A stretch of 64,000 bases of DNA. Origin: Salinispira sp. (GTDB lineage Bacteria; Spirochaetota; Spirochaetia; DSM-27196; Salinispiraceae). Positions within the stretch are counted from its first letter, which is position 1, and each line of letters opens with the position of its first letter. The notes beneath the pieces were generated by a model. The model worked only from the letters and a program-made list of their open reading frames with translations. It was not told the origin of the DNA and searched no databases. Location: NCBI GenBank assembly GCA_965226555.1, contig CBDDDG010000010.1:32001-96000 (forward strand), read 5' to 3'. The position numbers and the translations under genes are program-made. Positions 11,577 through 52,825 of the stretch are shown here, one piece after another.

Positions 11577-13289
11577 TTAGTATATATTCTGCAAAATAGC
11601 ATCCAACTCTTTATGAATTAAATTCAAATCTGCAACTAGGCTATTAGTTTGTGCAATAACCGACATTTCGGAATCTTTAATTTTTTTAATTTCTTCTTCA
11701 ATAGGTTGAAATTTTTCCTTAAAAAAGTTCTTGACCTGTTTTTTAAAGGCACCCTCTATATCGTTCGCAATACCTTTGAAAGTTGAGTTAATTTCTGTTC
11801 GCGCATCCGCTAATTTGCGGGCGTTTTCTTCATCTTGCTGCACATCCTTTACATCAAAAACAAGAGATATAACTAAAAAAATGGGACCCGCTACCTTGAG
11901 CAGGTTACCAAAAGCTTTTGTAATACCAATAGCCTGATAAGGAATAAATTTATACCCAATTTTGTGACCTACCGTAAGAACCGCTTTATGTGCCACACTT
12001 CCTGAAACATCTGCATTTTTCAGGAAGCCCATGCCAACGCTTGCCCCTTTCTTAACGGTAAAATTACCAAAAGATTGTATACATGTATCCGCGATCTGCT
12101 CAAACTGACGAAACCTTTCGTGTGCCTTTTTAGCTGTTTCAGACGTTGCTGCATCTGACGCATTCACGGAAAACTTTTCATCTTCATTCAGAATAAATTC
12201 TTCAAGAAGACGATTTTCGAATATCTTCTGTAAGTCGGGCTTAATATCTTCCATGCAGCTGTTGATGGCCTGTTCAACAGATTCTGCAGCCTCTTGGTTA
12301 TATTTTGATATGCTTTTTTCTGCTTTTCTGGATTCATCCTCAAGATTACTCTTGCTTCCCAGAAGAGAAGTAAGTTTTGAAGATTGAGCTTGAATTTTAG
12401 TATGTAAGTCCAGAACAATACCATCCAGTTCCCCTTCCAGACTTCTGCGCCTGCGGTTCATGGCCTTTGAAAGGCGGTTTAAAATAAGAAGTTTGGCATC
12501 ATCTTCATTATTATCGCGTACTACCGATTGAACGGCATCTTCAATGGACGCACGTAATATACGGATGGGTGTGTCCAACTTTGCATAGGCACTATTCTCA
12601 TTCGTAAAGGCATTTAGATCAGCTATAAAGGTATCAAACCGACTCAGCTTCTGAAGTTCTGCATCATGTGTATCTACTCCATCAATATAATCAAGGGCAT
12701 CAATGTATGAAACTACAAATGAATTAAGAAGATTAGGCGTAAGCGCATCCTGAAGGCTCTTAGCATAGTTTTCAATTTTTTCATTGTCATCCCCCGCCTC
12801 CGATGAAAGTTTATTTACAACCAACATCATTTTGTTTTTATACTTATAATTATATGCAAGTTCTTTAAAATTTTTAGCGGTAATTGAATCAAACAAAGAG
12901 TGAGTAAGGGTAAAAATAAGAATATCGCTTTCTTTCATTTTTTGAAGTGTTATTTCGTCGTGATTCTTTCGCTCGGTATACAACCCAGGGGTATCTATAA
13001 GCTTTATCCCGTTCCAATCGTATTCACTTGTATGATCTGTGGCAATATCGGCTGAAATTTTAATATCCTTACGTCCGGTAAGCGCAGAAATAATCGTGGA
13101 TTTGCCAGCGCTGTACTCGCCAATAAAGGCAACTGTAAGATAACCCCGCTGCCTGTATTCGGAATGCTGCTTTTCAAAATCTTGTTTAATTTTTTGAAGC
13201 AATTTCGGATGGTTATTGGTAATTTCAATAAATTTGTCTGCGCATGACTGAAACTGACTTATAATTTTCTCACCGTCAAATGTTAACAT
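11577..13289 (-). CDS. Dynamin-like GTPase (LeoA/HP0731-like)
   Basis: G1 GEYSAGKST, G3 DTPG, G4 NKLS, long helical stalk, hydrophobic paddle near C-terminus. Confidence 0.8.
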   Translation of the reverse strand: MLTFDGEKIISQFQSCADKFIEITNNHPKLLQKIKQDFEKQHSEYRQRGYLTVAFIGEYSAGKSTIISALTGRKDIKISADIATDHTSEYDWNGIKLIDTPGLYTERKNHDEITLQKMKESDILIFTLTHSLFDSITAKNFKELAYNYKYKNKMMLVVNKLSSEAGDDNEKIENYAKSLQDALTPNLLNSFVVSYIDALDYIDGVDTHDAELQKLSRFDTFIADLNAFTNENSAYAKLDTPIRILRASIEDAVQSVVRDNNEDDAKLLILNRLSKAMNRRRRSLEGELDGIVLDLHTKIQAQSSKLTSLLGSKSNLEDESRKAEKSISKYNQEAAESVEQAINSCMEDIKPDLQKIFENRLLEEFILNEDEKFSVNASDAATSETAKKAHERFRQFEQIADTCIQSFGNFTVKKGASVGMGFLKNADVSGSVAHKAVLTVGHKIGYKFIPYQAIGITKAFGNLLKVAGPIFLVISLVFDVKDVQQDEENARKLADARTEINSTFKGIANDIEGAFKKQVKNFFKEKFQPIEEEIKKIKDSEMSVIAQTNSLVADLNLIHKELDAILQNIY

Positions 13290-13302
13290 AACAATTATCT
13301 CC

Positions 13303-15810
13303 TTATGATGATATTTTGATAAAAAGGTCTTCTTGCAGAACCGATTTAATTTCTTCTTCTAGTTTTTTGGAGTTTACAGGTATCATTGTGGTAATAGTAA
13401 TTTCTTTGCCAACTTTGCGTTCTACCGATTGTATTACTCTCTTAATGGACTCCTCAGTCAGCGATGTCCGTTGGCATTGAACCCAGTCTATAACACGTTT
13501 TGCAAAGGCCATGTTCAATTTAGTGTTAATTGAAATTAAAGTTTTCTGTGTCTTCAACATTGCCGCGTTAAACGATGCAAGTCCTTCTTCCATTATATTA
13601 AAATAATCGGATATCTTTTTCTCAATTTCTTTACTGCTTTTCTCGAAGTTCTTTTGAACATTTTCTATAATTGTTTTTTGCTGATCTGCAACTGACTCTT
13701 CAAGTGTGGAGCGTATCTTGGATATTGCCTCCTGCCTTTTTTTTGCTTTTGATTTAAAAAAATTGGAAAGGATGCTCATAACCCCTCCCACAATTATTAA
13801 TGGCCAAGCAAATGAGGCTAATGCACCCCCTACTCCCCAAGCTATGGTACCGAGCAACCCCATTACCCCGCCACCAAATTTCAAAAAATTCTTCGCAAAC
13901 ATACTGGATTCTTCTGCTCTAATATCAATATGCTTAAATTCAAAATTTCCCAGCAAACTGATCTCCGAAGCGGTTTCACTGAGAAGTTCTTCAACGTTAC
14001 TTACATAAGTGTTCATTACCTTCCTATAAATAGCATCTAATTTTTGTGTATGCTTCTCCGCATGATCTTTCCATTCACTTTGCACATATGATTCTGTAGG
14101 TTCACAGTGTTCTTCGGCAAAGCGGGGTATACTGCCCCGCAATTCCTGAAAAACTTTACCAAACCCATTTTGCAAGTCTTTTTGGGCCTGTTGTGAGAAT
14201 TCTGCCGTACCACAGTTAACACGTTTTTTTGCTATCTGAAGATTCTCCCTGTTCTTTTTCAGAACACTTACTCTCTCGGCGATCCAACGAATAATTGGCT
14301 CAATTTCGCCAACAGTACAACCAAGCAGAGTCTGGGATCTCCGAATTTCTCCATCGCGTATCAACGACAATTTCAAACTATCGAGAAAATTTGTCAAACG
14401 ACTGGCTTTCAAGAGGGCATGCTGCTGTGAACTATATTCAGGTTTTTGGCTTATTAAGGCTGCGTATAGCTGAACCGGTATAATATCAAAATAATCATTC
14501 CCGTAGTGTTCTTTGGCATAACGGTTAATTCGATCAAAATGCCCACCCAGCGCAGATTTATCTTTAACAGAAAATGTTTTGCTTGGATTTTCAAGAAACT
14601 TTTCAATTTTCCGCGGATGTGTCAGATTTTCTTGTACATTCAACAAAATTATCAGAGGTTTTGCCTTGTTCTTTAATTTCTCTAAAAAGGCAAATTCTGT
14701 TTTTTGTTGATTATTATTTGTCAAAACAAAACAGATAACATCAGATTCATCAATTATCCTTTCGGCAATGGACTCATCTGTTTTTCCACCGGGGGCGCCA
14801 ATCCCGGGTGTATCAATAATGCGAATGTTTTTCCATTCATATACCCTGTTCAAACGGGTTTTCCGCTGTTTGCCAGCACCAATGGCTTCCTCGCCCCCCC
14901 CTGTGATAACTGCATGTAATGTGCTTTTCCCAGCCTTTGTTTTTCCAAGAAAGGAAATGGTGAAATATTGAGTTGCACTCTGCTTTTTATGGATTGATGC
15001 ATTAATGGTTTCAATTTTCTTAAATATATCCTGAACCAAGGATTTTTCGGTTTCCTGTAAGAAGGTGACCACTTCTTGAGTGTGTTCTTGATCCTTACCG
15101 ACAACAATTTTTGCAATTTCCGTTATTGGTTTTTCCAGTTCCTGTTGCAGATTTTTTAAAGATTCACGAGTCTTGCTCAGCGCCGGAATGGCAAAGGTAA
15201 TATCTTCATTTGCCACTTCTCTACAACGTTCAATAGCCTTGTCATATTCCGGACCACTCAGCAGTATCTTGTGCTCTAATTTGCCTAGAGTATTCTGAAC
15301 AAGATCTGATTTGAAAGATGCGAACATTGGAAGCAATTTACCGCCAAACAATTTATTAATGCCTGCAATTATTTTTTCACCTGTAGTAAATTGCTGTGAA
15401 TAATCTAATGACACCATCGTGTCTATATTTTTATTTGCCAGTGCCTCTGCAGAAGCACACATTCGGTCCAATTCAGATTCTGACACTCCCCATTCATCAG
15501 CAAGATGTTTCAACAACTCTCGTTCAAGTGGATGGCAGAATCCATCCACATACGCCAGATAAGCGCAATTTTCCAGACAGGAGATGCGTAACGTATCTGG
15601 AATTGATTTAATTACTACATCAAGAGGAAGCATGTTTTCTTGCTGAGATAGTATCTTCTCCGCTTCTTCCTGCGTTTTTTCATTAATTATATGTTCTCCA
15701 GCAATTTGAGCTAAGGCCTGTGTTTCTTTTATGTGTTCCTGCCTATCTGCGCAAACTACATAAAAATATAATAAAAAATGATAATCAATTTTATTCATAT
15801 TATTTGGCAT
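13303..15810 (-). CDS. TerB-like N-terminal domain fused to dynamin-like GTPase
   Basis: N-terminal VVCADRQEH...AYVDGFCHPLERELL (TerB-like); GKTKAGKST, DTPG; TM hairpin GGGVMGLLGTIAWGVGGALASFAWPLIIVGG; RBS GGAGGT before ATG 15810. Confidence 0.78.
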   Translation of the reverse strand: MPNNMNKIDYHFLLYFYVVCADRQEHIKETQALAQIAGEHIINEKTQEEAEKILSQQENMLPLDVVIKSIPDTLRISCLENCAYLAYVDGFCHPLERELLKHLADEWGVSESELDRMCASAEALANKNIDTMVSLDYSQQFTTGEKIIAGINKLFGGKLLPMFASFKSDLVQNTLGKLEHKILLSGPEYDKAIERCREVANEDITFAIPALSKTRESLKNLQQELEKPITEIAKIVVGKDQEHTQEVVTFLQETEKSLVQDIFKKIETINASIHKKQSATQYFTISFLGKTKAGKSTLHAVITGGGEEAIGAGKQRKTRLNRVYEWKNIRIIDTPGIGAPGGKTDESIAERIIDESDVICFVLTNNNQQKTEFAFLEKLKNKAKPLIILLNVQENLTHPRKIEKFLENPSKTFSVKDKSALGGHFDRINRYAKEHYGNDYFDIIPVQLYAALISQKPEYSSQQHALLKASRLTNFLDSLKLSLIRDGEIRRSQTLLGCTVGEIEPIIRWIAERVSVLKKNRENLQIAKKRVNCGTAEFSQQAQKDLQNGFGKVFQELRGSIPRFAEEHCEPTESYVQSEWKDHAEKHTQKLDAIYRKVMNTYVSNVEELLSETASEISLLGNFEFKHIDIRAEESSMFAKNFLKFGGGVMGLLGTIAWGVGGALASFAWPLIIVGGVMSILSNFFKSKAKKRQEAISKIRSTLEESVADQQKTIIENVQKNFEKSSKEIEKKISDYFNIMEEGLASFNAAMLKTQKTLISINTKLNMAFAKRVIDWVQCQRTSLTEESIKRVIQSVERKVGKEITITTMIPVNSKKLEEEIKSVLQEDLFIKISS

Positions 15811-16058
15811 AAGTACCTCCAGTTGCATAATTACCTCAATATGTTAACAATTTGTATTCTATAGAATATGCAGTTCATTATGCAATAGCAGTGGAAAATA
15901 TTTCTGGGATATAAACCTTTGGACAGACCCCTCCTCCCCAGTGTAAAACGAAGGTTATTCGTATACACTGGGGGTTGTATAAAACATAAAAGGAGGGAAA
16001 CAGTGAACAGTAGTATCACATATTCTCAGTATCATCGCAAGTCTCGGAAGTATCAGGC

Positions 16059-17275: not shown

Positions 17276-19537
17276 CTACTGCTCGCGCTGGGAAAAGAGA
17301 TAGGCGCTGCCGGAGCTTTCTCCGGCATTATTATTCTTATACTCGCCGACAATTGCCGTCTCTCCATCGAAGGCAACACTGGCTCCAAAGCTATCACCCG
17401 CAGCCGCATCGGGAGCAAGCATCTTATCATGCTGGCGCCACACACCATCGCTTCCTCGGGTAAAAACGTAGGCGCTGCCGGAGTCGACTCCGGCATCATC
17501 ATTCCCGAAGGCGCCGACAATTGCGGTGTTTCCAGAAATAGCGACACTGGCTCCAAAGCCATCATTCTCAGCCAAGTCAGTTGCGACAAGTTTTATCTGC
17601 TGATTCCAGTCCGTCTCCCCTTCAGTAAAAATGTATGCGGCGCCGGTAGCAATTCCATTATCAAAATTTCCATCAGCTCCGACAATTATTGTTGTTCCAT
17701 CGAAGGCAACACTGCTTCCAAATTTATTACCCTCAATCCGGTCACTTGCGGATATGACGCCGTAAATAGCACTCCAAGTCGTCCCGTTCCGGCGATATGC
17801 CTGTACAGTGCCTTTATCACTTGCTGAGCCAGGAATGCCAACCATTATCGTATTCCCATAAATAGCGACACTTCTTCCAAAATTATCATTTGCACCCGTG
17901 GAATGGAGTTTTTCTGGCTGGGACCAGTTGCCAGTGCTGTTTCGGGTAAAAGTGTATGCGCTGCCGCTATCGCTGGAGCCATCGTTGTCTTCAAACGGGG
18001 CGCCGACAATTGCCGTATTTCCATAAATAGCGACACTGTTTCCAAATCTATTACCCGGAGCCGAGTTAGTTGCGACAAGTTTTGCCTGCTGGCTCCAGTT
18101 GCCATTGTTGCCTCGGATAAAAATGTATGCGGCGCCGGCATTTTGGGTGGTGATTGTTGGATTCATAGGGTCGCCGGTACTAGTAATAACAGTATCATGT
18201 TGCGCGCCGATAATTGCCGTGCCATTAGCCTCATCAATAGCGACACTATTTCCAAATTCAGCGCCGGAAACCGCGTTAGTTGCGACAAGTTTTGCCTGCT
18301 GGCTCCAGTTGCCAGTACTCCCTTTGGTGAATATGTACGCGATACCGGAATTACCGGGGTTATTATCATCCTCGGCAAACGGCGCGCCGACAATTGCGGT
18401 ATTCCCATCAATAGCGACACTTATTCCAAAATTATCATTCGCAGCCGCATCGGAAGCCGTAATTTCTTCCTGTAGGGGGAAGTACCATGGGGTGCCGGCT
18501 ACTGCCGCAGACCAGCCGCCGGGTCCCTGAGCGTTAATGGCTTGTATGCTCGCCTCGTACTCGGCGCCGTTTGTGAGCCCAGAGAAGGTGTAGCGCGCGC
18601 CGATAATACCGTAGCTGAGCTCCGTCCATTCCACGGGTTCTTCTCCTTCTCCAACTGTTTCGCGATAGCGCAGGTTGTAGGCGCTAATGGCGTTGCCGCC
18701 GTCATCAGTAACCGTCCATGTCGCAACAAGTTCCCTATCGTTCGCTTCGAGGGTTACAACTGGCGCGCTGGGAACAGTGGCAGGCGCCAATGCTGCCGAT
18801 TCCGACCACGGCCCAGTTCCCTCACCGTTTATGGCGCGCGCCTGCACTTCGTACATGAGCCCGTTTGTCAGTCCGCTGCCAATGGTGTAGCGTGTGTCAG
18901 TAATACTAGGGGCAGGGGTAATGCCTTCGATAATTTTCGCCCATTCAATTTCCGTCCATTCGGCATTGCCCGCATCGCGGGACTCGCGGTAGCGCAGGTC
19001 GTAGGCGGTAATGTCGCTGCCGCCAATGTCCGGCGGGGCCTTCCATGCAACAGTAAGCGCTGTGTTCTTCGCTTCAAGCGCTGGCGGGGCAGGCGCTCCG
19101 GGAACATGCGCGGGCGCCAATGCCGCAGATTCCGACCATGGCCCCCCCCCCTGAGCGTTGACTGCGCGCATCTGCACTTCGTAGACAATTCCGTTTGTCA
19201 GTTCGCCAATGGTGTAGCCAGCGCCGATAATACCGTAGCTGAGCTCTGTCCACTCCGCATTTTCTGCTGGCGTTCCCGCCGCGCGGTGGCGCAGGTTGTA
19301 GCCAATAATGTCGCTGCCGCCGTTATTGGTCGGCGGGTTCCACGTAACAGTAAGCGAATTATTCCTTGCGGCAAGCTCCGGCGGCGCCATGGCAGACGGC
19401 GCGGTTGGTTCCGCAGCCGGCTTGGGTTCCGGGGTTGGCTCAGGGGTTGGTTCCGGCATTGGGCATGTAGAAATCAATACAATGCACATTGCGCAGAAAA
19501 TGAAAAAGATTGTTCCTTTGTATGACGAGATTCTCAT
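17276..19537 (-). CDS. Surface lipoprotein: 3x fibronectin type III + FG-GAP beta-propeller
   Basis: Leader ending LISTC, PEPT repeats, FN3 motifs (LTNG..YEVQ.RA.N..G.G.WS), repeated FG.SVAI.G.TAIVGA. Confidence 0.9.
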   Translation of the reverse strand: MRISSYKGTIFFIFCAMCIVLISTCPMPEPTPEPTPEPKPAAEPTAPSAMAPPELAARNNSLTVTWNPPTNNGGSDIIGYNLRHRAAGTPAENAEWTELSYGIIGAGYTIGELTNGIVYEVQMRAVNAQGGGPWSESAALAPAHVPGAPAPPALEAKNTALTVAWKAPPDIGGSDITAYDLRYRESRDAGNAEWTEIEWAKIIEGITPAPSITDTRYTIGSGLTNGLMYEVQARAINGEGTGPWSESAALAPATVPSAPVVTLEANDRELVATWTVTDDGGNAISAYNLRYRETVGEGEEPVEWTELSYGIIGARYTFSGLTNGAEYEASIQAINAQGPGGWSAAVAGTPWYFPLQEEITASDAAANDNFGISVAIDGNTAIVGAPFAEDDNNPGNSGIAYIFTKGSTGNWSQQAKLVATNAVSGAEFGNSVAIDEANGTAIIGAQHDTVITSTGDPMNPTITTQNAGAAYIFIRGNNGNWSQQAKLVATNSAPGNRFGNSVAIYGNTAIVGAPFEDNDGSSDSGSAYTFTRNSTGNWSQPEKLHSTGANDNFGRSVAIYGNTIMVGIPGSASDKGTVQAYRRNGTTWSAIYGVISASDRIEGNKFGSSVAFDGTTIIVGADGNFDNGIATGAAYIFTEGETDWNQQIKLVATDLAENDGFGASVAISGNTAIVGAFGNDDAGVDSGSAYVFTRGSDGVWRQHDKMLAPDAAAGDSFGASVAFDGETAIVGEYKNNNAGESSGSAYLFSQREQ

Positions 19538-19979: not shown

Positions 19980-20996
19980 ATGATCGATTTCAAAGAAAAA
20001 CCCGCCCCCGTTCCCTACGACCAAGGCTACCGCTCCCTGCTGTTCCAACCCGCAATAATGCTCCAATTTCTTCAACGCTTTGTCGGAGGCGCATGGACGA
20101 AAAAATTGCGAATCGAGGATATAACCATCGAAAACGGTACCTTTTTCATTGACCATGCGAAAACACGAATGGCCGACATTGTCTGCAAAATAACGCAGAA
20201 GGATCACACGGGAGATGTTGTCATTTATGTGCTCCTTGAGCATCAGTCTGGAGTGGACAACGACATGCCCCTCCGCATGTCGGAATATACGAATCTGCTC
20301 TATCGGAACATTCACCGCTCCGGCGCAATTCCCGATGACTGCGAGTTGGTATTTCTGCCCATTGTGTTCTATAATGGTACGCGAAAATGGAAGGTGCCGG
20401 GGAATGTCAGAGAGCAACGGAAACGGAAATTCCCGCAGTATCTTGCTCCCTTTCCCTATGAGCTGATAAGTGAGAGCGATTATTCTGCGGAGCAGTTGCA
20501 GCAGCGGGGAAGAATGTTTGCGGCTGTTATGTACCTTGATCTGTACTCGAAAAATCTGCTGAATACGGATTGGGACATTCAGAAGGTGGAGAAAGCGATA
20601 GCAGAAATGCTGAATGAGGAATCGCTGGAGCTGATAAAGGAATTTATTGGCGTGGTAGATTCGATGTTCGGAATTGTTATAGATTTAGATACGTTAATGA
20701 ACAGATTAGAAAGAACAAAAGAACCGAGAGGTAAGGAGGTAGCAAAAATGTTCAGAATGAATGCGGAAACATTCAGAGCGCGCATTGCGGAGATGGGTCG
20801 GCAGGAAGGACTTCAGACAGGTCGGCAGGAAGGACTTCAGACAGGATTGCAAACAGGTCGACAGGAAGGTCGTGAAGAAGGCATTCGAGAAACGGCCCGC
20901 AGTATGTTTTTGGAAGGGTTGTCGACAGAGGCTGTTCAGAGAATTACCGGGCTGAGCGATGAGGAAATGCGGACATTGCGGAACGGATCGCATTAA
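19980..20996 (+). CDS. Rpn family recombination-promoting nuclease / PD-(D/E)XK protein, copy 1
   Basis: D.GYRSL, MADIV, LLEHQS..D..MPLRM, PIVFYNG..KW, C-terminal GRQEG repeats and ITGLS HTH. Confidence 0.9.
   Translation: MIDFKEKPAPVPYDQGYRSLLFQPAIMLQFLQRFVGGAWTKKLRIEDITIENGTFFIDHAKTRMADIVCKITQKDHTGDVVIYVLLEHQSGVDNDMPLRMSEYTNLLYRNIHRSGAIPDDCELVFLPIVFYNGTRKWKVPGNVREQRKRKFPQYLAPFPYELISESDYSAEQLQQRGRMFAAVMYLDLYSKNLLNTDWDIQKVEKAIAEMLNEESLELIKEFIGVVDSMFGIVIDLDTLMNRLERTKEPRGKEVAKMFRMNAETFRARIAEMGRQEGLQTGRQEGLQTGLQTGRQEGREEGIRETARSMFLEGLSTEAVQRITGLSDEEMRTLRNGSH
20748..20996 (+). CDS. Putative intragenic RpnS small protein (82 aa)
   Basis: In-frame TAAGGAGGT-N7-ATG inside the Rpn gene. Confidence 0.65.
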   Translation: MFRMNAETFRARIAEMGRQEGLQTGRQEGLQTGLQTGRQEGREEGIRETARSMFLEGLSTEAVQRITGLSDEEMRTLRNGSH

Positions 20997-21356
20997 TTGA
21001 CGTTGCTCGGCCTGCGCGCAGAGCGGATAATATCAACATCTGGATCAACCTCACAATACCAGTTCCTTCAGGGTATACTTAGACATTCTGGGACTTCATA
21101 CATTCGTACTTCAACAAAGGACTCATGCGGAAACTGCTGCTCCGCCTTAATGCCCGCATTCCCGAGCCCTCCCCTCCCGTATCGCCCCGAAAATCCCTCC
21201 CAACCCGAAAAAATTCACACATTTTGCAAAATTCTTTCCACATACACAGTCAAAAATGACCGTTTACCCGTCACAGATATAGAGGAGAGAATTCACCATG
21301 GGACCATGTCGCTATGGGAGCTCCCCTATTCAGAAAAAAACGTTCAGGAGGATTGT

Positions 21357-22337
21357 ATGATCGATTTCAAAGAAAAACCCGCCCCCGTTCCCTACGACCA
21401 AGGCTACCGCTCCCTGCTGTTCCAACCCGCAATAATGCTCCAATTTCTTCAACGCTTTGTCGGAGGCGCATGGACAAAAAAGCTGCGCCGTGAAGATATT
21501 ACCATTGAAAACGGTACCTTTTTCATCGACCATGCAAAAACACGGATGGCCGACATTATCTGCAAAATCAGAACTCGGGATCACACGGGAGATGTTGCTA
21601 TCTATGTGCTCCTTGAGCATCAGTCTGGAGTGGACAAAGACATGCCCCTCCGCATGTCGGAGTACACAAACCTTCTCTACCGGAACATTCACCGCTCTGG
21701 CGCAATTCCCGATGACTGCGAGGTGGTATTTCTGCCCATTGTGTTCTATAATGGTACGAGAAAATGGAAGGTGCCGGGGAATGTCAGAAAGCAACGGAAA
21801 CGGAAATTCCCGCAGTATCTTGCTCCTTTTCCCTACGATCTGATAAGCGAGAGCGATTATTCTGCGGAGCAGCTGCAGCAGCGGGGAAGAATGTTTGCGG
21901 CTGTTATGTACCTTGATCTGTACTCGAAAAATCTGCTGAATACGGATTGGGACATTCAGAAGGTGGAGAACGCGATAGCAGAAATGCTGAATGAGGAATC
22001 GCTGGAGCTGATAAAGGAATTTATTGGCGTGGTAGATTCGATGTTCGGAATTGTTATAGATTTAGATACGCTAATGAACCAATTAGAAAGAACAAAAGAA
22101 CCGAGAGGTAAGGAGGTAGCAAAAATGTTCAGAATGAATGCGGAAACATTCAGAGCGCGCATTGCGGAGATGGGTCGGCAGGAAGGACTGCGAACAGGTC
22201 GCGCTGAGGGGCATATTGAGGAGCGGAGAAAAAACGCCCGCAGTATGTTTTCGGAAGGATTATCGACCGAGGCTGTTCAGAGAATTACCGGGCTGAGCGA
22301 TGAGGAAATGCGGACATTGCGGAACGGATCGCATTAA
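21357..22337 (+). CDS. Rpn family nuclease, copy 2 (tandem duplicate); internal start at 22125
   Basis: Near-identical to copy 1 including ~200 bp of upstream DNA (19762 vs 21153); fewer C-terminal repeats. Confidence 0.9.
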   Translation: MIDFKEKPAPVPYDQGYRSLLFQPAIMLQFLQRFVGGAWTKKLRREDITIENGTFFIDHAKTRMADIICKIRTRDHTGDVAIYVLLEHQSGVDKDMPLRMSEYTNLLYRNIHRSGAIPDDCEVVFLPIVFYNGTRKWKVPGNVRKQRKRKFPQYLAPFPYDLISESDYSAEQLQQRGRMFAAVMYLDLYSKNLLNTDWDIQKVENAIAEMLNEESLELIKEFIGVVDSMFGIVIDLDTLMNQLERTKEPRGKEVAKMFRMNAETFRARIAEMGRQEGLRTGRAEGHIEERRKNARSMFSEGLSTEAVQRITGLSDEEMRTLRNGSH

Positions 22338-22398
22338 TTATCGCAGCTCGGCATGCGCGCCATGCATCCGCAGTAAAATCCTGAGGAGGTAAAAAAAT

Positions 22399-22575
22399 AT
22401 GTTGGCAGATCTTTTAGGTGACCTATGGCGGGCAGGTGTTGAGCAGGAGCAAGCTCAGGATCAGCGTGAGCATGCACTCAATATGCTCAGGGAAGGTCTG
22501 TCTATGAACCTTATTCATAAGGTCACCGAGCTCAGCGGGGATGAAATTCGGGCATTTCCGAAAAACGGTGAATAA
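22399..22575 (+). CDS. Stand-alone Rpn C-terminal (RpnS-like) mini-gene, 58 aa
   Basis: RBS GAGGAGGT; MLADLLGDLWRAGVEQ...LNMLREGLSMNLIHKVTELSGDEIRAFPKNGE; not in the ORF track; paralog of 43320-43544. Confidence 0.7.
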   Translation: MLADLLGDLWRAGVEQEQAQDQREHALNMLREGLSMNLIHKVTELSGDEIRAFPKNGE

Positions 22576-22584: not shown

Positions 22585-23118
22585 ATGGGTACTATTTCTC
22601 GGGGGGTCGTCATCGGACGCTTCAATCCGCCCCATAACGGACACCGATATCTTCTCAATTTCGCTCAGCAACATGTTGATAAATTATATGTTTTCATCTG
22701 TACACTTCCAGAAGATGAAATTCCCGGAATGCTGCGTTTTGTCTGGATGCAGAAACTCGTTCCGAGGGCGGAAATTATCCATATAACAGAAGAGAATCCG
22801 CGCGCGGTTCGGGGAGCGCCCGAAGCAGTGAAAATCTGGGCGAAAACCATTTTGAGCAACATGAAGGATGGGCGCCCCGACTATGTTTTTGCCTCCGAGG
22901 ACTACGGACAGATCCTTGCCCGCGAACTGGGAGCCGTTTTTATTGATGTCGATTCAGGGCGTGAACAATTCCCTGTCTCCGCATCCGCCATACGCTCAAA
23001 CCTGTTGAAACTTCTTGAATACTGGAAGTATATTCCCGAACCCGTCCGTGTATGGTTTCATGAACAACTCGCCGCCTGTGAAACTATAGAAAACAGTGAA
23101 AACATTGAAAGGAGGTAG
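22585..23118 (+). CDS. NadR-like nucleotidyltransferase (HxGH family)
   Basis: IGRFNPPHNGH, VFASEDYG, VSASAIR. Confidence 0.8.
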   Translation: MGTISRGVVIGRFNPPHNGHRYLLNFAQQHVDKLYVFICTLPEDEIPGMLRFVWMQKLVPRAEIIHITEENPRAVRGAPEAVKIWAKTILSNMKDGRPDYVFASEDYGQILARELGAVFIDVDSGREQFPVSASAIRSNLLKLLEYWKYIPEPVRVWFHEQLAACETIENSENIERR

Positions 23119-28407: not shown

Positions 28408-30396
28408 TTAATACCATGACGGTATCAGACTACCTGTCACTTTGGAACTACTGAACATACCTGTTGTGTCTCCGGTATATTTACCACCGCTGAGCGTCCA
28501 ATGATCCTTCCATTCCTCAAGATTTTGACCGAATGCGTTTGCTCCAGCAAACATATGCCGCATATTCGTTACCGAACTGACATCCCAGTTTGAGATATCG
28601 CCATTGAATCCCTGATTATAATAGAACATCAAACTCATATTCCTTACCGAGCTGACATCCCAACCCGAGATATCGCCATTGAATGCGTCTGCATTCCTGA
28701 ACATATCAGACATATCCGTTACCGCTGTAGTATTCCAACCGGAGATGTCGCCATTGAATGTGCTTGCATCTTGGAACATCCTCTTCATATTCGTTACCGA
28801 GCTGACATCCCAGTTTGAGATATCGCCATTGAATGCGTCTGCATAATAAAATATCCGGTACATACTCGTTACCGCGCTGACATCCCATCGGGAGATATCG
28901 CCATTGAACATGTTTGGATCTGAAGAAGTCCCACTAAAAACCCCGGTCATACTCGTTACTGCTGAGGTAATAATGTAGTTGAGATCGGCAGTATTTCCCC
29001 AGGTTGACATCCCCGTATTTACCGCTGTTTTCAGCGCTGAGTTAGTCCTTGGATTCACGGTAACATGGAAATGTTCGGAAAACCGTACAGTGTTCCCACT
29101 GTCTACGCCCGACACGAGGTATGTTCCTGCCGTTGTACTCGCGGTAACGGTAATAACTCCCGTACTCGGATCAACTGTCGGCAGGGTAACCGTTGCGGTT
29201 GGGGTAGTAACCGCGGTCAAAGAAACGGTTAAGTTATCAGCGGCAATCTGGTTATCTATAGCGGTCGAAAGAATTCCGTTCGTTGCCGTTCCCGCGGGAT
29301 GCTGTGTCCCTAAAACCGGAAATGGCACTGTTGCGGTGGCGGGAGGGGTAGACCAATCACTATCACCCGCCGCATTTCTGGCAAGCACTAGTACACCGTA
29401 AGTAATGCCGTTTGTCAGTCCGGTAATGGTGTGGCTTGTGCTGGTAATTCCTTCAATTATCTCTTTCGAACTCATATGATTCAAATTATAAATAAGCAAT
29501 TTATACTCGGTAATGGCGCTGCCGCCGTCATCATCGGGAGCTGTCCATGCTGCGCTGATCTGGGCGTTTCCGACGGTGAGCGTTGGAGCTGTCGGCACGC
29601 TGGGAACGGCAGCGGAGATTGCTGTTGTGGATTCAGACCAGTCACCACCTCCAATGCCATTGACAGCGCGCACCTGCACATCGTACTCGGTGCCGTTTGT
29701 CAGTCCGGTGATGACGTAGCTGGTATTTGTTCCGATGCCGGAGATAATTTCCGTCCAGCTGGTTCCGCCGTCTGAGCTATGGCGCAGATGATATGCGGTA
29801 ATATCGCTGCCGCCGTCATCATCGGGCGCTGTCCATGCTACGGTGAGCTGGGCGTTTCCGGTGATGAGCATTGGAGCTGTCGGCGCGCTGGGAGCTGTCG
29901 GCAAGTTGGGATCTGTCGGATCGCTGGGATCTGTCGGATCGCTGGGAACGACAGCGGCATCAGCTGTTGCGGATGCCGACCAGTCACCATTGCCCTGAGC
30001 GTTGACAGCGCGCACCTGTACTTCATAGCTACCGTCGGCTGTCAGCCCGGTTATGATGTAGCTGGTGCTTGTGCCGATGCCGGAGATAATTTCCGTCCAT
30101 TCGGTTCCGCCGTCTAAGCTATGGCGCAGATGATAGGCGGTAATTTCACTACCACCGTTGTCCGGCTCTTCCCAGAAAGCAACAATGTAATCAGATTCCT
30201 GAACAAGAGCGAGCGCTGTTATGGCAGACGGCGCCGAGAGCTCAGGCGGTGAATCGATTCCCAGATCGCCCGGAAGCGGATCCGTACAGGCTGCGAGAAG
30301 CAGTATTGGAGCCAGCATGAGCGCCTCCAACAGATACAATGTGAAATGTTTTCCATTTCCATTATTGGCAAAAATACAATGCGTTATATTTCGCAT
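28408..30396 (-). CDS. Surface lipoprotein: 3x FN3 + BspA/DUF285 repeats
   Basis: LLAAC lipobox; FN3 motifs; FNGDISxWDVSSVTNM repeats. Confidence 0.9.
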   Translation of the reverse strand: MRNITHCIFANNGNGKHFTLYLLEALMLAPILLLAACTDPLPGDLGIDSPPELSAPSAITALALVQESDYIVAFWEEPDNGGSEITAYHLRHSLDGGTEWTEIISGIGTSTSYIITGLTADGSYEVQVRAVNAQGNGDWSASATADAAVVPSDPTDPSDPTDPNLPTAPSAPTAPMLITGNAQLTVAWTAPDDDGGSDITAYHLRHSSDGGTSWTEIISGIGTNTSYVITGLTNGTEYDVQVRAVNGIGGGDWSESTTAISAAVPSVPTAPTLTVGNAQISAAWTAPDDDGGSAITEYKLLIYNLNHMSSKEIIEGITSTSHTITGLTNGITYGVLVLARNAAGDSDWSTPPATATVPFPVLGTQHPAGTATNGILSTAIDNQIAADNLTVSLTAVTTPTATVTLPTVDPSTGVITVTASTTAGTYLVSGVDSGNTVRFSEHFHVTVNPRTNSALKTAVNTGMSTWGNTADLNYIITSAVTSMTGVFSGTSSDPNMFNGDISRWDVSAVTSMYRIFYYADAFNGDISNWDVSSVTNMKRMFQDASTFNGDISGWNTTAVTDMSDMFRNADAFNGDISGWDVSSVRNMSLMFYYNQGFNGDISNWDVSSVTNMRHMFAGANAFGQNLEEWKDHWTLSGGKYTGDTTGMFSSSKVTGSLIPSWY

Positions 30397-30850
30397 ACAT
30401 TTTCCTCCTATAAAAGGTTAATATGAGTTATAAACTCAATTCATTAGCAACACCGCATGCTGCTGCCTGCATTTCCATCAATTTGCGCCACACGCAATTC
30501 CTTCGGCCCGTGTTTGGTCATTCATCTATGGTGTATTCTGCGATCAATCTAATATCTACCAACTCACAGTGGCCTTTTTATTATTCCTCCCTCATATCTC
30601 GTAACGGAAAAAATTTCACTGGTAACTATGTGTTTGAAAAGAATTTTGCAAAATTTGTGATTTTTTTTTGGGCGGGGGGAAAGGGTATCTCAAATGCTTA
30701 TATCTCACGAGATCTTCAATAATACATGGGAGATGTTAGTAGACCTTTTCGATAAGCCATTTTTGGCAGGTGTTGAGTAACAGCGAAACCGTGTCTGCTG
30801 GAGTTGAATCGCAAGGCTTTAATAGCCAATGGGGTTATGGGGTTATGAAA

Positions 30851-33187: not shown

Positions 33188-33417
33188 ACAATTTCCTCCA
33201 TTACCATATTCTTATACTAAGTACTAAGTGTATCACAGAATTATGTAATAGCAAAACAGATCAAATATCAGAACAGAACTTCCCCAATAATCGCCCGAGG
33301 ATGCGTTGCGCGCCCACGCGGCTGGTAAGTGCCCCGCCTCAGCAACAGTCGCATAGGTGAGCAATCGAAAAAAGGCAGGCACGGATTTCTCCGCGCCTGC
33401 CCAAGTTGAATTGCCGT

Positions 33418-33445
33418 GTTTCATAGCTCCCGCGGGCTATGAAAC
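33418..33445. terminator. Hairpin downstream of the 33451-34803 gene
   Basis: GTTTCATAGC-tcccgcgg-GCTATGAAAC, 10-bp stem. Confidence 0.5.
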
Positions 33446-33450
33446 TGCTC

Positions 33451-34803: not shown

Positions 34804-34936
34804 GATTTTGCCTCCTAAAATCATAATTTTTTGACTCAGAAAAATTCTGACGGCTCCCGCCACTATTTCCGAGGTTGCGGCATAATATCAGTTTGAGAAA
34901 ACATATGCAATGAGGATTTTCTCATCTCAAAACTCC

Positions 34937-42800: not shown

Positions 42801-43319
42801 ACATGGCCTCCACTAAAAATATAGTTCCAAAACTATAGTATGTCAATATAATTTGTCAAGATTAATAAAATATTAATAAAAAGAGACCGTTGCATAATCC
42901 ATGGTTCTATTGAGATGGGGAAGGTTGATAAAAATTTGGGGTAAAACTGGCTGATAATGCCATCTGAGCGCCCGCGAAGGATCGCATTTTGCTCATTTCT
43001 GCCCGTTTTCGGGCTGGTTTCCGGCGCGTAGGCAGGCGATCCCTGTCGGCTTCTGCCGTTTTCCCAAATGCGGCTGCTAAGCCGCCCATTAATGCGATCC
43101 GTTCCGCACTGTCCGCATACTGTTTTCTCCTCCTGAATATCCGAGGATTTTCAAAAGCATATTTCCAGCTATGTACCATACCGATATGATTTTTTCTCAT
43201 ACCATATAGACGGGTAAAATATGAATGGTGAATATGAGAAATTTTTGTAATTATTTTTATTATTTTGGGATATTACTGTTGGACCTGACCCCGGCGCGGG
43301 GCGCGCTGAAGTAGCGCTG

Positions 43320-43544
43320 CTACGCTTCACCGTTTTTCTGAAATGCTCGAATTTCATCTCCGCTGAGATTGGTGATATCATGAATAATGTCCATCGATAT
43401 GCCCTTCCTGAGCATTTTGAGTACCTGCTCACGTTGGGTTCGATCATGTTCACGCTGGAGCTCAGCACGCCCCTGCTCAAGCCCCTGCTCAAACCTGTGC
43501 TCAACACCTGCCCGCCATGGCTTATCTAAAAGATCTACCAACAT
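43320..43544 (-). CDS. Stand-alone Rpn C-terminal (RpnS-like) mini-gene, 74 aa
   Basis: RBS GAGGAGGT; EQGLEQG repeats, MLRKGISMDIIHDITNLSGDEI HTH. Confidence 0.72.
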   Translation of the reverse strand: MLVDLLDKPWRAGVEHRFEQGLEQGRAELQREHDRTQREQVLKMLRKGISMDIIHDITNLSGDEIRAFQKNGEA

Positions 43545-43596: not shown

Positions 43597-44781
43597 TTAA
43601 TGCGATCCGTTCCGCAATGTCCGCATTTCCTCATCGCTCAGCCCGGTAATCCTCTGAACAGCCTCGGTCGACAACCCTTCCAAAAACATACTGCGGGCGT
43701 TTTTTCTCCGCTCCTCAATATGCCCCTCCGCGCGACCTGCCTGTAGCCCCTTTTGAAGTCCTTCTTCACGACCTGTCTGCAGTCCTTCCTGTCGACCTGT
43801 TTGCAATCCTTCTTCACGACCTGTTCGCAGTCCTGTCTGCAGTCCTTCCTGCCGACCTGTCTGCAGTCCTTCCTGTCGACCTGTTTGCAATCCTTCTTCA
43901 CGACCTGTTCGCAGTCCTGTCTGCAGTCCTTCCTGCCGACCTGTCTGCAATCCTTCCTGCCGACCCATTTCCGCAATGCGCGCTCTGAATGTTTCCGCAT
44001 TCATTCTGAACATTTTCGCTACCTCCTTACCTCTCGGTTCTTTTGTTCTTTCTAATTGGTTCATTAGCGTATCTAAATCTATAACAATTCCGAACATCGA
44101 ATCTACCACGCCAATAAATTCCTTTATCAGCTCCAGCGATTCTTCATTCAGCATTTCTGCTATCGCTTTCTCCACCTTCTGAATGTCCCAATCCGTATTC
44201 AGCAGATTTTTCGAGTACAGATCAAGGTACATAACAGCCGCAAACATTCTTCCCCGCTGCTGCAGCTGCTCCGCAGAATAATCGCTCTCGCTAATAAGAT
44301 CGTAGGGAAAAGGAGCAAGATACTGCGGGAATTCCCGCTTCCGTTGCTTTCTGACATTCCCCGGCACCTTCCATTTTCTCGTACCATTATAGAACACAAT
44401 GGGAAGAAATACCACCTCGCAGTCATCGGGAATTGCGCCGGAGCGGTGAATGTTCCGATAGAGCAGATTCGTGTACTCCGACATGCGGAGGGGCATGTCT
44501 TTGTTCACTCCAGACTGATGCTCAAGGAGCACATAGATAGCAACATCTCCCGTGTGATCCCGACTCCTGATTTTGCAGACAATGTCGGCCATTCGTGTTT
44601 TTGCATGGTCAATGAAAAAGGTACCGTTTTCAATGGTTATATCCTCGGTTCGCAATTTTTTCGTCCATGCGCCTCCGACAAATCGTTGAAGAAATTGGAG
44701 CATTATTGCGGGTTGGAACAGCAGGGAGCGGTAGCCTTGGTCGTAGGGAACGGGGGCGGGTTTTTCTTTGAAATCGATCAT
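43597..44781 (-). CDS. Rpn family nuclease, copy 3 (inverted relative to copies 1/2); internal start at 44013
   Basis: Near-identical to copies 1/2, with an expanded GRQEGLQT repeat tract. Confidence 0.9.
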   Translation of the reverse strand: MIDFKEKPAPVPYDQGYRSLLFQPAIMLQFLQRFVGGAWTKKLRTEDITIENGTFFIDHAKTRMADIVCKIRSRDHTGDVAIYVLLEHQSGVNKDMPLRMSEYTNLLYRNIHRSGAIPDDCEVVFLPIVFYNGTRKWKVPGNVRKQRKREFPQYLAPFPYDLISESDYSAEQLQQRGRMFAAVMYLDLYSKNLLNTDWDIQKVEKAIAEMLNEESLELIKEFIGVVDSMFGIVIDLDTLMNQLERTKEPRGKEVAKMFRMNAETFRARIAEMGRQEGLQTGRQEGLQTGLRTGREEGLQTGRQEGLQTGRQEGLQTGLRTGREEGLQTGRQEGLQTGREEGLQKGLQAGRAEGHIEERRKNARSMFLEGLSTEAVQRITGLSDEEMRTLRNGSH

Positions 44782-45314: not shown

Positions 45315-45433
45315 ACCATATAGACGGGTAAAATATGAATGGTGAATATGAGAAATTTTTGTAATTATTTTTATTATTTTGGGATATTACTGTTGGACCT
45401 GACCCCGGCGCGGGGCGCGCTGAAGTAGCGCTG

Positions 45434-45781
45434 CTACGCTTCACCGTTTTTCTGAAATGCTCGAATTTCATCTCCGCTGAGATTGGTGATATCATGAATA
45501 ATGTCCATCGATATGCCCTTCCTGAGCATTTTGAGTACCTGCTCACGTTGGGTTCGATCATGTTCACGCTGGAGCTCAGCACGCCCCTGCTCAAGCCCCT
45601 GCTCAAGACCTTCAACCCGGCCTTTCAGAATGCCTTTCTCCATTCCTTTTGCAATGCCTTTCTCCATTCCTTTTGCAATGCCTTTCTCCATTCCTTTCAG
45701 AATGCCCTTCTCCATTCCCTCAATCCGGCCCTTCGCAATGCCTTCCCTTACGAAGGCGTTGGTAATATTATATGTCCGCAT
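45434..45781 (-). CDS. RpnS-like C-terminal module with (GMEK/GIAK)n repeats
   Basis: RBS TAGGAG, ATG 45781; C-terminal half identical to 43320-43490. Confidence 0.72.
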   Translation of the reverse strand: MRTYNITNAFVREGIAKGRIEGMEKGILKGMEKGIAKGMEKGIAKGMEKGILKGRVEGLEQGLEQGRAELQREHDRTQREQVLKMLRKGISMDIIHDITNLSGDEIRAFQKNGEA

Positions 45782-46764
45782 ACTGTTTTCTCCTACTGAA
45801 ACTTTTGCATTGGAAAATTGTGCAGAGCACAATTTCCAGTAGCAAAAGTTTCACATTTGGCAGGCCTCGTTGCGCTTGGCATTCTCTCATTTTGTAGAAA
45901 GTTTTGCCTGTGGCAAAACTTTGTCCAGGGTACAGTTCCCTGTCAATTTTCTCAAACTGCTCATACAGTCCCAAATCTTTTAGATAGCCTAACACACTTT
46001 CTGCCAGATCAGTAAAGTCTTGTGATGACAGACCGTTCAGAAGCTGCGCAATCTCTTTCAGCCCCTCATCGTTCATTTCACTGAAAATTGTGCTCTGCAC
46101 AATTTTCAAATGAGGATTCTCTCATCTATACTCTTGATTCTCTCACGGTATAGAAAGTTTTTCCTAAAGGAAAAACTTTGTTATTATCTCGCATTATATA
46201 CCACAATGCAGTCGATGTATATCGTTTTCCATCGAAACGCCATGCCAACTGCCTTTTGTCCATTCGCCTCAGATCGCGCACAATGTACGACACTCTCGCC
46301 CTGACATCCACCGTGCCTTCGGTAAGGGATTCGGAAGCAGCATTTCCATGTAAACTGTAAAATGTGAGTGGGAGGTTCCATTCATTTTTTCCATGGTAGA
46401 ACAGAAGTATATAGATAGCATCATTTTCATTGTACACATTGCTGTTTCTGAGGGCATATTGGTAGTCATCGATCTGTGTGAGAGCATGTTTATTCAGGTA
46501 GCTTTTGTGTTCAATAATAAATAGGGCCTTCCGGTCGGGGTCTGACAGGAAGGGGGCACTGACAACGAGATCGCAGTGAAGGTTCTTTTTTCCCGCAATG
46601 TAGCTGGGATTTTCAATGCGAATTTTGTCCATGTCCAGCTTGGTAAGAATCGTATCCGTACAGAACAGCCGCAGCAGGTCGGGAATCAGCCGGGGGGTTC
46701 GGTAGTAGGCGATCTTGAAGGCTATGTCGTGGATGTGGCCTGTGCTCTGGGATGATTTTTTCAT
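45768..46764 (-). pseudogene. Divergent Rpn nuclease broken by palindromic insertions
   Basis: HDIAFK...CDLVV...IIEHKS...LLFYHG motifs in 46126-46764; continuation in 45768-46109; palindromes at ~46152, ~46080, ~45897 and 45798. Confidence 0.75.
45798..45852. repeat. 55-bp palindromic element copy
   Basis: gaaacttttgcattggaaaattgtgcagagcacaatttccagtagcaaaagtttc. Confidence 0.9.
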
Positions 46765-47291
46765 AAACATTCCTCCTACATCTATAACGGGTAAAAAGTC
46801 ATTCTTGACTATGTTTTTGGAAAGCATTTTGCAAAATTTGTGAATTTTTTTCGGGGAGTCGGGAATGGGGGGCTGGTATGCTCTGTGTTGATGCTCTCCA
46901 TGCTCCCGGGGACAATGCTCCGCGCGAGGTCTTTGTTGAAGTATGAATATATGAAATCCCGGAATATCTGAGGATTTTCAAAAACATATTTCCAGCTTTG
47001 ATCATGCACCATACCACATAAACAGGATATGCGCGCATGGTGAATGATGTTATGAGAAATTTTTTGAAAAAGTTTCTATTATTTTGAGATATTAGCCTGA
47101 TCCAGACGTATGGGCGAGCAGAAGGCATGGCGAGCCAACGCGGAGCACCGACCAGCCTAGGAGACGCAGCCTCCCCGACCAGCCGTCTTGCTCGAAAAAA
47201 GGCAGGCACGGGGGCTGGTCGGCGCCCCATGCCTGCCTGAGTTGAATTGCAACGTTTCATTAGCCGCTGGGGGCTTCCGCCCTACTGGTTG

Positions 47292-49460
47292 CTATTTGGT
47301 GAAAATGTATATTTTGCCAGAATCAACGCCAGCCGTATTATCATCAGTCCGCCGCGCGCCGACAATCGCAGTATCTCCATTCAGAGCAACGCTATATCCA
47401 AAATTCTCATTTGCTGGCGCACCATCAGTTTCTAGTTTTTGCCGCTGGGTCCAGCCGTTGCCGCTGACATCCTTGGTGAAAATGTAAGCACTGCCCTGCT
47501 CTGTAGTACCAGTACTATCCTGAAATGCGCCGACAATCGCAGTATCTCCATCAATGGCAACACTAATTCCAAAATAATCATTTAGTTGTCCGTCAGATGC
47601 CGTCAGTTTGACTTCATTGCCCCAGCCACTGTCGCCCTTGGTAAAAATGTATGCGGTACCGGAAGCATCGCCTTTATCATCACCATTAGACTCTCCGACA
47701 ATCACGGTATCTCCATCAATGGCAACACTAGTTCCAAACAGATCATCTATATCAGTTGGCGTCAGTTTGACTTCATTTCCCCAGCCACTGTCGCCCTTGG
47801 TAAAAATGTATACGCCGGAATTGGTGCTCAGTGAACTCCCCGGCGCGCCGATAACCGCGGTAGTTCCATCAATGGCAACACTAGTTCCAAAGAAACTAAT
47901 TGCAGCTCCATCAGATGCCGTTAGGTTGACTCCATCGTCCCAGCCATCGGCACTGCTATCCTTGGTGAAAATGTAAGCGCTGCCATGATCATTATCATCA
48001 TCATCAGTATTAGTATCATCAGTATCATCCCAATATGCGCCAACAATCGCAGTATCTCCATCAATGGCAACACTAATTCCAAAATAATCATTTGGTTGTC
48101 CGTCAGTTGCCATCAGTTTTGCCTGCTGGGTCCAGCCGTTGCCAGTGGTATCCTTGGTGAACACATACGCGCTGCCGGAATTCATGCCGTTAGCATTAGT
48201 CTCAAAATACGCACCGACAATCGCAGTAGTTCCATCGTCATCCAGATCAACAGTGATTCCAAAATAATCACCTGCAGCCGCGTCACTTGCCTCCAGTTTT
48301 GCCTGCTGGGTCCAGCCGTTGCCAGTGGTATCCTTGGTGAACACATACGCGCTGCCAGCATTACTACTATCCTTATATGCACCGACAATCGCAGTGTCTC
48401 CATCTTCATCCAGAGCAACAGTGATTCCAAACTGATCACCTGCAGCCGCGTCAGATGCCAAGCGTTCGATTTTGTTCGGAAAAAGAAGTAGTAAAACGGT
48501 AGCGCTATTCGACCATGCGCCATCGCCCACAGCGTTAACGGCGCGTACCTGTACGTGGTAGCGAGTGCCGTTTGTGAGGTCTGTGATGGTGTGGCTTGTG
48601 CCGGTGATTTCGGATGCTTCAATTAATGTCCATGTGGTTCCGCCGTCTGAGCTATATTGCAGCTCATACCCGGTAATTTCGCTGCCGCCGTCATCATCGG
48701 GCGCTGTCCATGTAACCGTAAGCGAAGCGTTCCCCGCTTCGAGAGTGGGAGTAGTCGGCGCGTCAGGAACAGTGGAAGATGCTGTAGGGGTTGCAGTGGC
48801 AGATTCCGACCATGCGCCGCTTTCTCCGCTCGCGTTGACCGCGCGTACCTGTACTTCGTAGCTGGTACCGCTTGTTAGCCCGGTAATGACGTGGTTTGTG
48901 CTGGTAATACCGGAGGTGAGCTCCGTCCAGCTCCCCTTGCCGTCTTCCCTGTGGCGCAGGTGGTAGGAGCTAATGGCGCTCCCGCCGGTATCGGTCGGCG
49001 CTGTCCATGTCACCGTCAGTTGCTCATTCCCTGCTTCGAGAGTGGGAGCAGCCGGCGCTGCAGGAAGGGTAGCGAGAGGCCTTGCGGTGGCAGATGGCGA
49101 CCAATCGCCTTCTCCGTTCGCGTTGACCGCGCGCACTTGCACCTCATAACCGGTACCGTTTGTTAGTCCGGCAATGGTGGAGCTTGTACCGTCAATGCCC
49201 TCGGTAATATCCGTCCAGCTTCCGCTGCCTTCTTCAGCATGGCGCAGGTGATAGTCGGTTACATTGTGACCGTCAAGCGCATCCCACGAAACCGCAATTG
49301 TTCCGCTTCCCGCCGTTAGCTGCGGCATGGACATGGCAGGCGGCGCGCTACCATCTACCGGTACAGGATCAGTACTCGGAACAGGATCTGGCCCCGGACA
49401 CCCAGCAAGCAACGCGGCACACACCGCGCAGCATACGACAAACAGGGAGTACTTCCCTAT
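47292..49460 (-). CDS. Surface lipoprotein: 3x FN3 + FG-GAP propeller; start uncertain
   Basis: LLAGC lipobox; the open frame extends to IGKYSLFVVCCAV but has no ATG; FN3 and FG-GAP repeats. Confidence 0.8.
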   Translation of the reverse strand: MGKYSLFVVCCAVCAALLAGCPGPDPVPSTDPVPVDGSAPPAMSMPQLTAGSGTIAVSWDALDGHNVTDYHLRHAEEGSGSWTDITEGIDGTSSTIAGLTNGTGYEVQVRAVNANGEGDWSPSATARPLATLPAAPAAPTLEAGNEQLTVTWTAPTDTGGSAISSYHLRHREDGKGSWTELTSGITSTNHVITGLTSGTSYEVQVRAVNASGESGAWSESATATPTASSTVPDAPTTPTLEAGNASLTVTWTAPDDDGGSEITGYELQYSSDGGTTWTLIEASEITGTSHTITDLTNGTRYHVQVRAVNAVGDGAWSNSATVLLLLFPNKIERLASDAAAGDQFGITVALDEDGDTAIVGAYKDSSNAGSAYVFTKDTTGNGWTQQAKLEASDAAAGDYFGITVDLDDDGTTAIVGAYFETNANGMNSGSAYVFTKDTTGNGWTQQAKLMATDGQPNDYFGISVAIDGDTAIVGAYWDDTDDTNTDDDDNDHGSAYIFTKDSSADGWDDGVNLTASDGAAISFFGTSVAIDGTTAVIGAPGSSLSTNSGVYIFTKGDSGWGNEVKLTPTDIDDLFGTSVAIDGDTVIVGESNGDDKGDASGTAYIFTKGDSGWGNEVKLTASDGQLNDYFGISVAIDGDTAIVGAFQDSTGTTEQGSAYIFTKDVSGNGWTQRQKLETDGAPANENFGYSVALNGDTAIVGARRTDDNTAGVDSGKIYIFTK

Positions 49461-52810: not shown

Positions 52811-52825
52811 CTATTCACTATTCTT

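Follow-up and report, generated by a model that had tools for sequence, protein, structure and literature searches.

The closest described systems are the RpnL/RpnS pairs of E. coli (RpnA–E and RpnP2), in which one gene yields a nuclease and, from an in-frame internal start, a small protein. The available part of the principal study (Zhong et al. 2023, PMC10400941) reports internal translation, toxicity, cognate-specific blocking and a dependence of specificity on repeat number, with antitoxin activity demonstrated for RpnA, RpnB, RpnC and RpnP2 and protection against phage for RpnP2. The same text describes stand-alone small genes (ypaA/rpnESs and rpnCSs; DUF4351) that derive from their own upstream gene, as well as rpn arrays arising by tandem duplication and having no insertion-sequence (IS) ends; it counts five rpn genes in E. 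coli K-12 and gives 26 as the highest copy number. A small protein is also shown there for a C. difficile gene. A sequence-only reading of the DNA analysed here had pointed to this known kind of toxin–antitoxin system, which comparison supports well; its label 'enterobacterial' is too narrow in view of the C. difficile case.

Further background concerns activity and copy number. In E. coli, according to the accessible portion of Kingston et al. (2017, PMC5350276), RecA-independent recombination is promoted by RpnA. The protein shows little activity in vitro, and mutation of its catalytic residues D11, D63, E82, Q84 and R94 abolishes activity. The part available of another report (PMC4853749) gives 28 related genes in Thiomargarita, and the driver of repeat variation is listed as open in PMC10400984. 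As both the gene-within-gene antitoxin and its stand-alone copies have been published, the core system is already known and the locus described below is itself an expected member; what differs here is the genome-wide pattern—expansion, one-sided decay and a link to lipoprotein genes.

Rpn genes of the window

The window, i.e. the whole 64,000-nt stretch of Salinispira sp. DNA that was analysed, contains three full-length rpn copies of one subfamily (F1): copy 1 (19980..20996, forward strand; 338 aa), a predicted PD-(D/E)XK nuclease (RpnL) matching PF04754 with an E value of 1.3e-18, copy 2 (21357..22337, forward strand; 326 aa) and copy 3 (43597..44781, reverse strand; 394 aa). All three score above the PF04754 cut-off; TIGR01784 is significant in all three and above cut-off in copy 1. 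Each copy carries the ribosome-binding motif TAAGGAGGT at offset 752 and an ATG at offset 768, corresponding to 20732..20740 and 20748 in copy 1, 22109..22117 and 22125 in copy 2 (both forward strand), and 44029–44021 and 44013 in copy 3 (reverse strand). The predicted RpnS proteins comprise 82 aa (20748..20996), 70 aa (22125..22337; modelled as one long helix and two short ones) and 138 aa, respectively. A motif and ATG 768 nt into three Rpn genes, with C-terminal products of these very sizes, is what the sequence-only reading had proposed, and both were recovered at the positions given. Since the copies are 94–96% identical over the nuclease part (first 768 nt), their agreement counts as one observation, and the 8-mer by itself occurs in the window barely more often than by chance (4 vs. 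1.44 expected; 5 of 100 shuffles reach 4).

In contrast to the E. coli arrays, each of the adjacent copies 1 and 2 has closer relatives than its neighbour: their mutual ranks, 10th and 15th of 30, led to rejection of a recent tandem duplication. The reverse strand near copy 3 also holds an rpn gene of subfamily F0 (45434..46764) that is split by two insertions and whose predicted RpnS (45781–45434) is still open, together with a 5′ remnant of an F4 rpn gene (46877..47012) and a second such remnant (45287–45164). Positions 43132–43431 and 45246–45545 form a direct repeat of 99% identity, spanning a mini-gene tail and an F4 5′ remnant; this is a recent local duplication within the rpn cluster.

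In its PF04754 domain and active-site pattern, the nuclease part resembles RpnL of E. coli and C. difficile. Residues D14, D66, E87, Q89 and R99, which in copy 2 fit the RpnA pattern, are at least 90% conserved among 80 sequences, and their spacing agrees with that of RpnA D11, D63, E82, Q84 and R94; family and catalytic residues are thus shared with RpnA as characterised in the accessible portion of PMC5350276. No F1 copy departs from this pattern (31/31). A crude nonsynonymous/synonymous ratio was 0.17 in F1 and 0.17–0.38 over the nuclease part, values that recombination renders only rough; they suggest purifying selection on the nuclease part.

In the structural model of copy 2, the internal start lies in a disordered linker (pLDDT <50 at residues 250–258), ahead of a three-helix unit (residues 262–299, 304–311 and 315–324). 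The family profile matches the E. coli RpnA small protein (7TH0) at an E value of 1e-5, so that a homologous three-helix small protein, like the lack of IS-like ends, is common to both systems. Neither a Foldseek comparison with the PDB (threshold E 0.001) nor a direct sequence search of the PDB (nothing significant) returned a match.

Internal starts across subfamilies and homologs

Support for the internal start beyond near-identical copies comes from other subfamilies and distant homologs, which share the aligned site. A ribosome-binding motif followed by ATG stands at this site, just ahead of the repeat helix, in all seven Rpn subfamilies (7/7), which are mutually 15–44% identical. No other in-frame start outscores the internal site in 31 of 32 F1 genes, 9 of 10 F2 genes, all four F4–F6 genes and 27 of 32 F0 genes; in F3 it scores best in only one of six. 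In copy 1, it tops 24 in-frame starts at –12.5 kcal/mol. Background rates for such a site, taken from 1,449 other long ORFs and their 10,932 internal ATGs, are 1.3% per 30-codon stretch when the weakest score is allowed and 0.16% at a score of –11.9 kcal/mol.

More distant comparisons point the same way. Methionine occupies the internal-start column in 66 of 79 homologs with 19–32% identity, a set hand-picked from search results that includes one sequence from the source genome itself. Of eight rpn loci in five related genomes, seven reach the site and all seven possess motif and start, ranking best in three and second-best in four. Synonymous codon choice at the motif is modestly unusual in five subfamilies (P 0.04–0.09) and ordinary in F0 and F3 (P 0.38–0.41). 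A scan for internal promoters gave seven promoter-like sites vs. 4.5 ± 2.0 by chance, none of which stands out. Taken as a whole, the internal start is very probably real. The claimed Rpn identity and internal start are hence well supported by comparison and fit the published system; a toxin–antitoxin arrangement within one gene, as had been put forward, agrees with both at the level of sequence.

Predicted small proteins range from 70 to 142 aa, their lengths changing in 4-aa steps in 29 of 31 F1 and 26 of 27 F0 genes. As in E. coli and C. difficile, the in-frame start would thus precede a helix with four-residue repeats. All intact F1 small proteins differ in sequence (31/31); as many have the same length, one-to-one specificity cannot be taken for granted. 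The 31 nearly identical F1 nucleases, each with a small protein of its own sequence, constitute a ready-made specificity matrix.

By analogy with E. coli, full-length Rpn is predicted to cut DNA and would be bound and inhibited by the small protein, whose translation likely begins at codon 257. The helix common to both proteins contains 12-nt repeats at the DNA level; these differ in number and sequence between copies and would tune the pairing between small protein and nuclease. We regard a toxin–antitoxin function as probable. The fuller account—Rpn genes as toxin–antitoxin pairs within one reading frame that have dispersed and recombined, accompanied by mini-genes derived from F4—is the one we favour, with a little less assurance.

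Stand-alone mini-genes

Copy 2 is followed directly by an RpnS-like mini-gene of subfamily F4 (22383..22575 including its ribosome-binding motif, forward strand; ATG at 22399, 58 aa), with F4 homology beginning at 22372. A second stand-alone mini-gene (43320..43544, reverse strand; 74 aa) combines an F4 head with a tail whose DNA is 96% identical to that of an F0 gene. Both frames are open and each lies behind GAGGAGGT; separate RpnS-like genes with ribosome-binding sites of their own, as had been suggested for 22399–22575 and 43544–43320, are therefore borne out. The 58-aa mini-protein is identical to the best F4 small protein at 40 of 58 positions, compared with 17 of 57 for the adjacent F1 protein; over the first 14 residues, the figures are 11 for F4 and one for the neighbour. 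Folded as a single sequence, it gives one long helix (pTM 0.46), and a complex prediction with copy 2 scored 0.14. Ten nucleotides past the mini-gene starts a cytidylyltransferase-like gene (22585–23118; HIGH motif), at which unique DNA begins.

Genome-wide, fourteen stand-alone F4-type copies share one common junction about 26 nt before the ATG; in nine cases the gene immediately ahead belongs to F1, F0 or F3. A frameshift or early stop breaks five of the fourteen, against 5 of 73 other orphan small proteins (P 0.008), so that the mini-genes may be remnants; a sixth fails the strict tail pattern, yet has an open 67-aa frame with a tail match. Only two intact F4 genes are left, while F4 5′ remnants are common (115 matches, two of them in the 43–47 kb cluster). 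The likeliest explanation is that F4 genes once held many such sites and were then displaced, leaving their ends behind. Excision of mini-genes from several subfamilies was considered as well and rejected: the F0, F1 and F3 cases are whole genes split by insertions of a miniature inverted-repeat transposable element (MITE)-like sequence or other elements. On sequence grounds, only F4-type mini-genes are excised.

The F4 small-protein end would accordingly have been severed a single time, about 26 nt ahead of its start, and later copied behind other rpn genes. Like ypaA/rpnESs and rpnCSs, the window mini-genes are separate small genes that sit immediately behind a full rpn gene and have a ribosome-binding motif of their own; unlike these, they stem from another subfamily and have a single origin. 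The sequence-only reading had proposed stand-alone antitoxins of other specificity. A different origin (F4 rather than the adjacent F1) holds up; stand-alone genes as such are not new, and five of the fourteen F4-type copies are broken. Mini-genes of this type are likely translated, although some are decaying and blocking of their neighbours cannot be assumed. For the window mini-gene, translation seems somewhat the better guess, and its usefulness somewhat doubtful.

One-sided decay

A genome-wide search found 166 internal-start sites (the 58-aa mini-gene was missed because of its longer spacer). At 80 of these the nuclease part is intact, and in only one of the 80 is the small part broken. 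The nuclease part is broken at the other 86, of which 76 keep the small part by the strict pattern and 77 on inspection. Seen from the nuclease side, all but one of 106 intact nuclease segments have an internal start no more than 3.5 kb away. The small part makes up 26% of an rpn gene. Because lesions are inherited between copies, the asymmetry was recounted as 20–30 distinct lesions, a hand count; for about 30, or cautiously 20, lesions P is 0.001–0.015. The nuclease part is, in these counts, freely lost and the small part almost never first, as self-poisoning would predict.

Many of the rpn lesions are insertions of a MITE-like element of about 126 nt. In the window, it forms a double hairpin (45798..45923, reverse strand; z –4.7) immediately ahead of the F0 gene's internal ribosome-binding motif, and in F0, F1 and F3 genes it lies 13–40 nt ahead of the internal ATG. 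More generally, the element is often found just ahead of ribosome-binding sites. It occupies 491 loci in the source genome, fragments included; among 44 distinct pairs of flanks, the 5-base target duplication is perfect in 18 and agrees at four of five bases in a further 8. As its preference for AT-rich targets may spare the repeats neutrally, the decay test is suggestive rather than decisive. With that qualification, the counts provide suggestive genetic evidence, from outside the enterobacteria, that the small protein outlasts the nuclease.

Genome-wide expansion of rpn

The source genome (2.98 Mb in 26 contigs) contains 138 PF04754 matches, with 144 of 164 candidates scored, compared with 0–4 in all seven family relatives and 0–4 in each of 20 relatives, for which 90 candidates were scored. 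A profile census listed 84 candidate full-length rpn genes in seven subfamilies (32, 32, 10, 6, 2, 1 and 1 members), a few of which turned out to be truncated; in 79 rpn genes, nuclease part and small part are both intact. Pieces of rpn form 116–127 clusters depending on the allowed gap, most with a single gene end, and the window locus is one of about 120 in this genome-wide expansion. The less ordinary aspect of the locus, beyond what the sequence-only reading could see, is this expansion and its tie to lipoprotein genes.

An assembly artefact is unlikely, as the rpn copies have different flanks. Summed contig depth was about 270–1,475 over rpn in two runs vs. about 6 on a unique flank; these values, from three DNA runs of at most one sample that may be the source, do not represent a copy number. 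Scans of genome and metagenome collections for related loci returned no relative, and the literature covered, which is incomplete, contained no report of a comparable rpn expansion or of a link to lipoprotein genes.

Compared with the RpnL/RpnS systems described, the genome thus differs in holding about 80 intact genes of seven subfamilies at about 120 dispersed loci, in addition to about 77 loci with the small protein only. About 80 intact copies exceed the highest quoted number, 26, an excess that a plain defence role does not explain. The genome is useful as a natural experiment for questions that the 2023 study and its commentary did not settle: the driver of repeat variation, the way in which rpn multiplies, and whether each copy is insulated from the antitoxins of others.

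A scan of 18 window proteins for defence genes identified two pairs: one LeoA/LeoBC-like, of the dynamin family (11577–15828; PADLOC E 1.6e-96 and 3.4e-97), at a distance of about 4 kb from copy 1, the other a type II restriction enzyme with its methyltransferase (51689–53932), about 7 kb from copy 3. That phage defence is the main role of rpn here appears doubtful.

Lipoprotein genes and spread

In place of a demonstrated link to defence islands, rpn is here tightly linked to predicted lipoprotein genes. The nearest 5′ ORF belongs to one 171-ORF cluster, built by single linkage, at 70 of 120 rpn clusters (62 co-directional), compared with 8 of 120 on the 3′ side. Three hundred random draws gave a mean of 14 and a maximum of 28 such 5′ links, and presumed IS genes, identified by eye, have the same link in 13 of 71 cases. 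The cluster is rich in FN3 domains (123/171), and 108 of its ORFs carry a lipobox-like motif vs. 52 of 1,739 other ORFs. Its members in the window combine FN3 with FG-GAP or DUF285. One predicted FN3 and FG-GAP lipoprotein gene of this cluster (17276..19537, reverse strand) is divergent from copy 1; another FN3 and FG-GAP gene (47292..49424, reverse strand) lies directly upstream of, and co-directional with, the rpn cluster at 47012–43320.

Thirty percent of the source genome is repeated, and rpn occurs in 106 of 217 repeated blocks of at least 1 kb, mostly—as read by eye—at one end and pointing outward. The length of shared flank varies continuously on both sides of 57 rpn copies compared, with no common junction or target duplication. 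F1 copies recombine heavily (four-gamete conflicts in 53–74% of site pairs), and small-protein tails have been swapped between subfamilies. Having spread to about 120 places without fixed ends, the copies likely multiply by recombination, often along with the upstream lipoprotein gene. A part for Rpn in copying neighbouring genes goes beyond what the accessible portion of PMC5350276 shows for RpnA, and is only suggested here.

These data bear on a rival explanation in which rpn is a selfish, self-spreading module: local recombination promoted by the nuclease would copy rpn together with, or behind, the lipoprotein gene, the toxin–antitoxin function would prevent deletion, and defence would be secondary. 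The lopsided 5′ linkage, its excess over random draws and presumed IS genes, the outward-pointing block ends and the 138 matches vs. 0–4 in relatives are all in keeping with it, as is the RecA-independent recombination role of RpnA in E. coli reported in the available part of PMC5350276. Moreover, nearest-related lipoproteins are followed by the same rpn subfamily in 32 of 62 cases vs. 28% expected. However, fixed ends and target duplications are absent, 90 of the 171 ORFs in the lipoprotein cluster are not followed by a co-directional rpn in the next 2.5 kb, and rpn hitchhiking on lipoprotein duplications would give the same linkage; a single genome cannot separate rpn driving lipoprotein amplification from rpn riding on it. 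We consider this explanation unlikely.

A bolder version, to which we give equally little credence, casts Rpn as an addiction module that spreads itself, driving the amplification of a host-facing FN3 lipoprotein repertoire and locking it in. If so, nuclease-promoted recombination would copy lipoprotein–rpn cassettes around the chromosome, changes in repeat number would give each cassette its own antitoxin code and prevent its loss, and the bank of about 77 antitoxin-only genes, foreign-subfamily mini-genes included, would buffer the load. A role that extends past phage defence to amplification of the genome is hinted at by the way rpn consistently takes one side of predicted surface-lipoprotein genes where the two are linked.

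Less probable again is that the small protein, rather than acting as an antitoxin, takes part in the oligomerisation or regulation of a recombination nuclease of low activity, the expansion being drift and the mini-genes and split copies functionless. The repeat content of this genome, in which several presumed IS families and the MITE-like element have been amplified too, would suit such a reading, as would the broken F4 mini-genes (5/14 vs. 5/73), the mere two intact F4 genes and the low in vitro activity of E. coli RpnA (PMC5350276, available part). Yet ratios of 0.17–0.38 indicate purifying selection on the nuclease part, decay is one-sided, and E. coli RpnA, RpnB, RpnC and RpnP2 have antitoxin activity, as set out in the accessible portion of PMC10400941. 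An IS transposase whose transposition products are the copies is a very improbable and largely refuted reading: near-identical copies are dispersed over many contigs, and a model for ISNCY transposase is matched weakly, at a score under its cut-off, but the 57 copies with their continuous flank lengths have no fixed ends, terminal inverted repeats or target duplications, and the published analysis, in the part available, reached the same view (PMC10400941). Dispersed, recombining toxin–antitoxin genes with F4-derived mini-genes accordingly remain our preferred reading.

Several repeats in and beyond the window deserve mention in their own right. Positions 18376–19267 and 62447–63338 are inverted copies of part of an FN3/FG-GAP gene, 97% identical and 43 kb apart; the pair is a recent duplication or conversion. 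Three tandem FN3 and DUF285 genes with 75-nt repeats (28408–34863) have no adjoining rpn. Short GC-rich hairpin modules, repeated and shuffled, are found just past the stop codons of many rpn and lipoprotein genes (e.g. contig C14 after 188986), in one instance as a tandem triplet.
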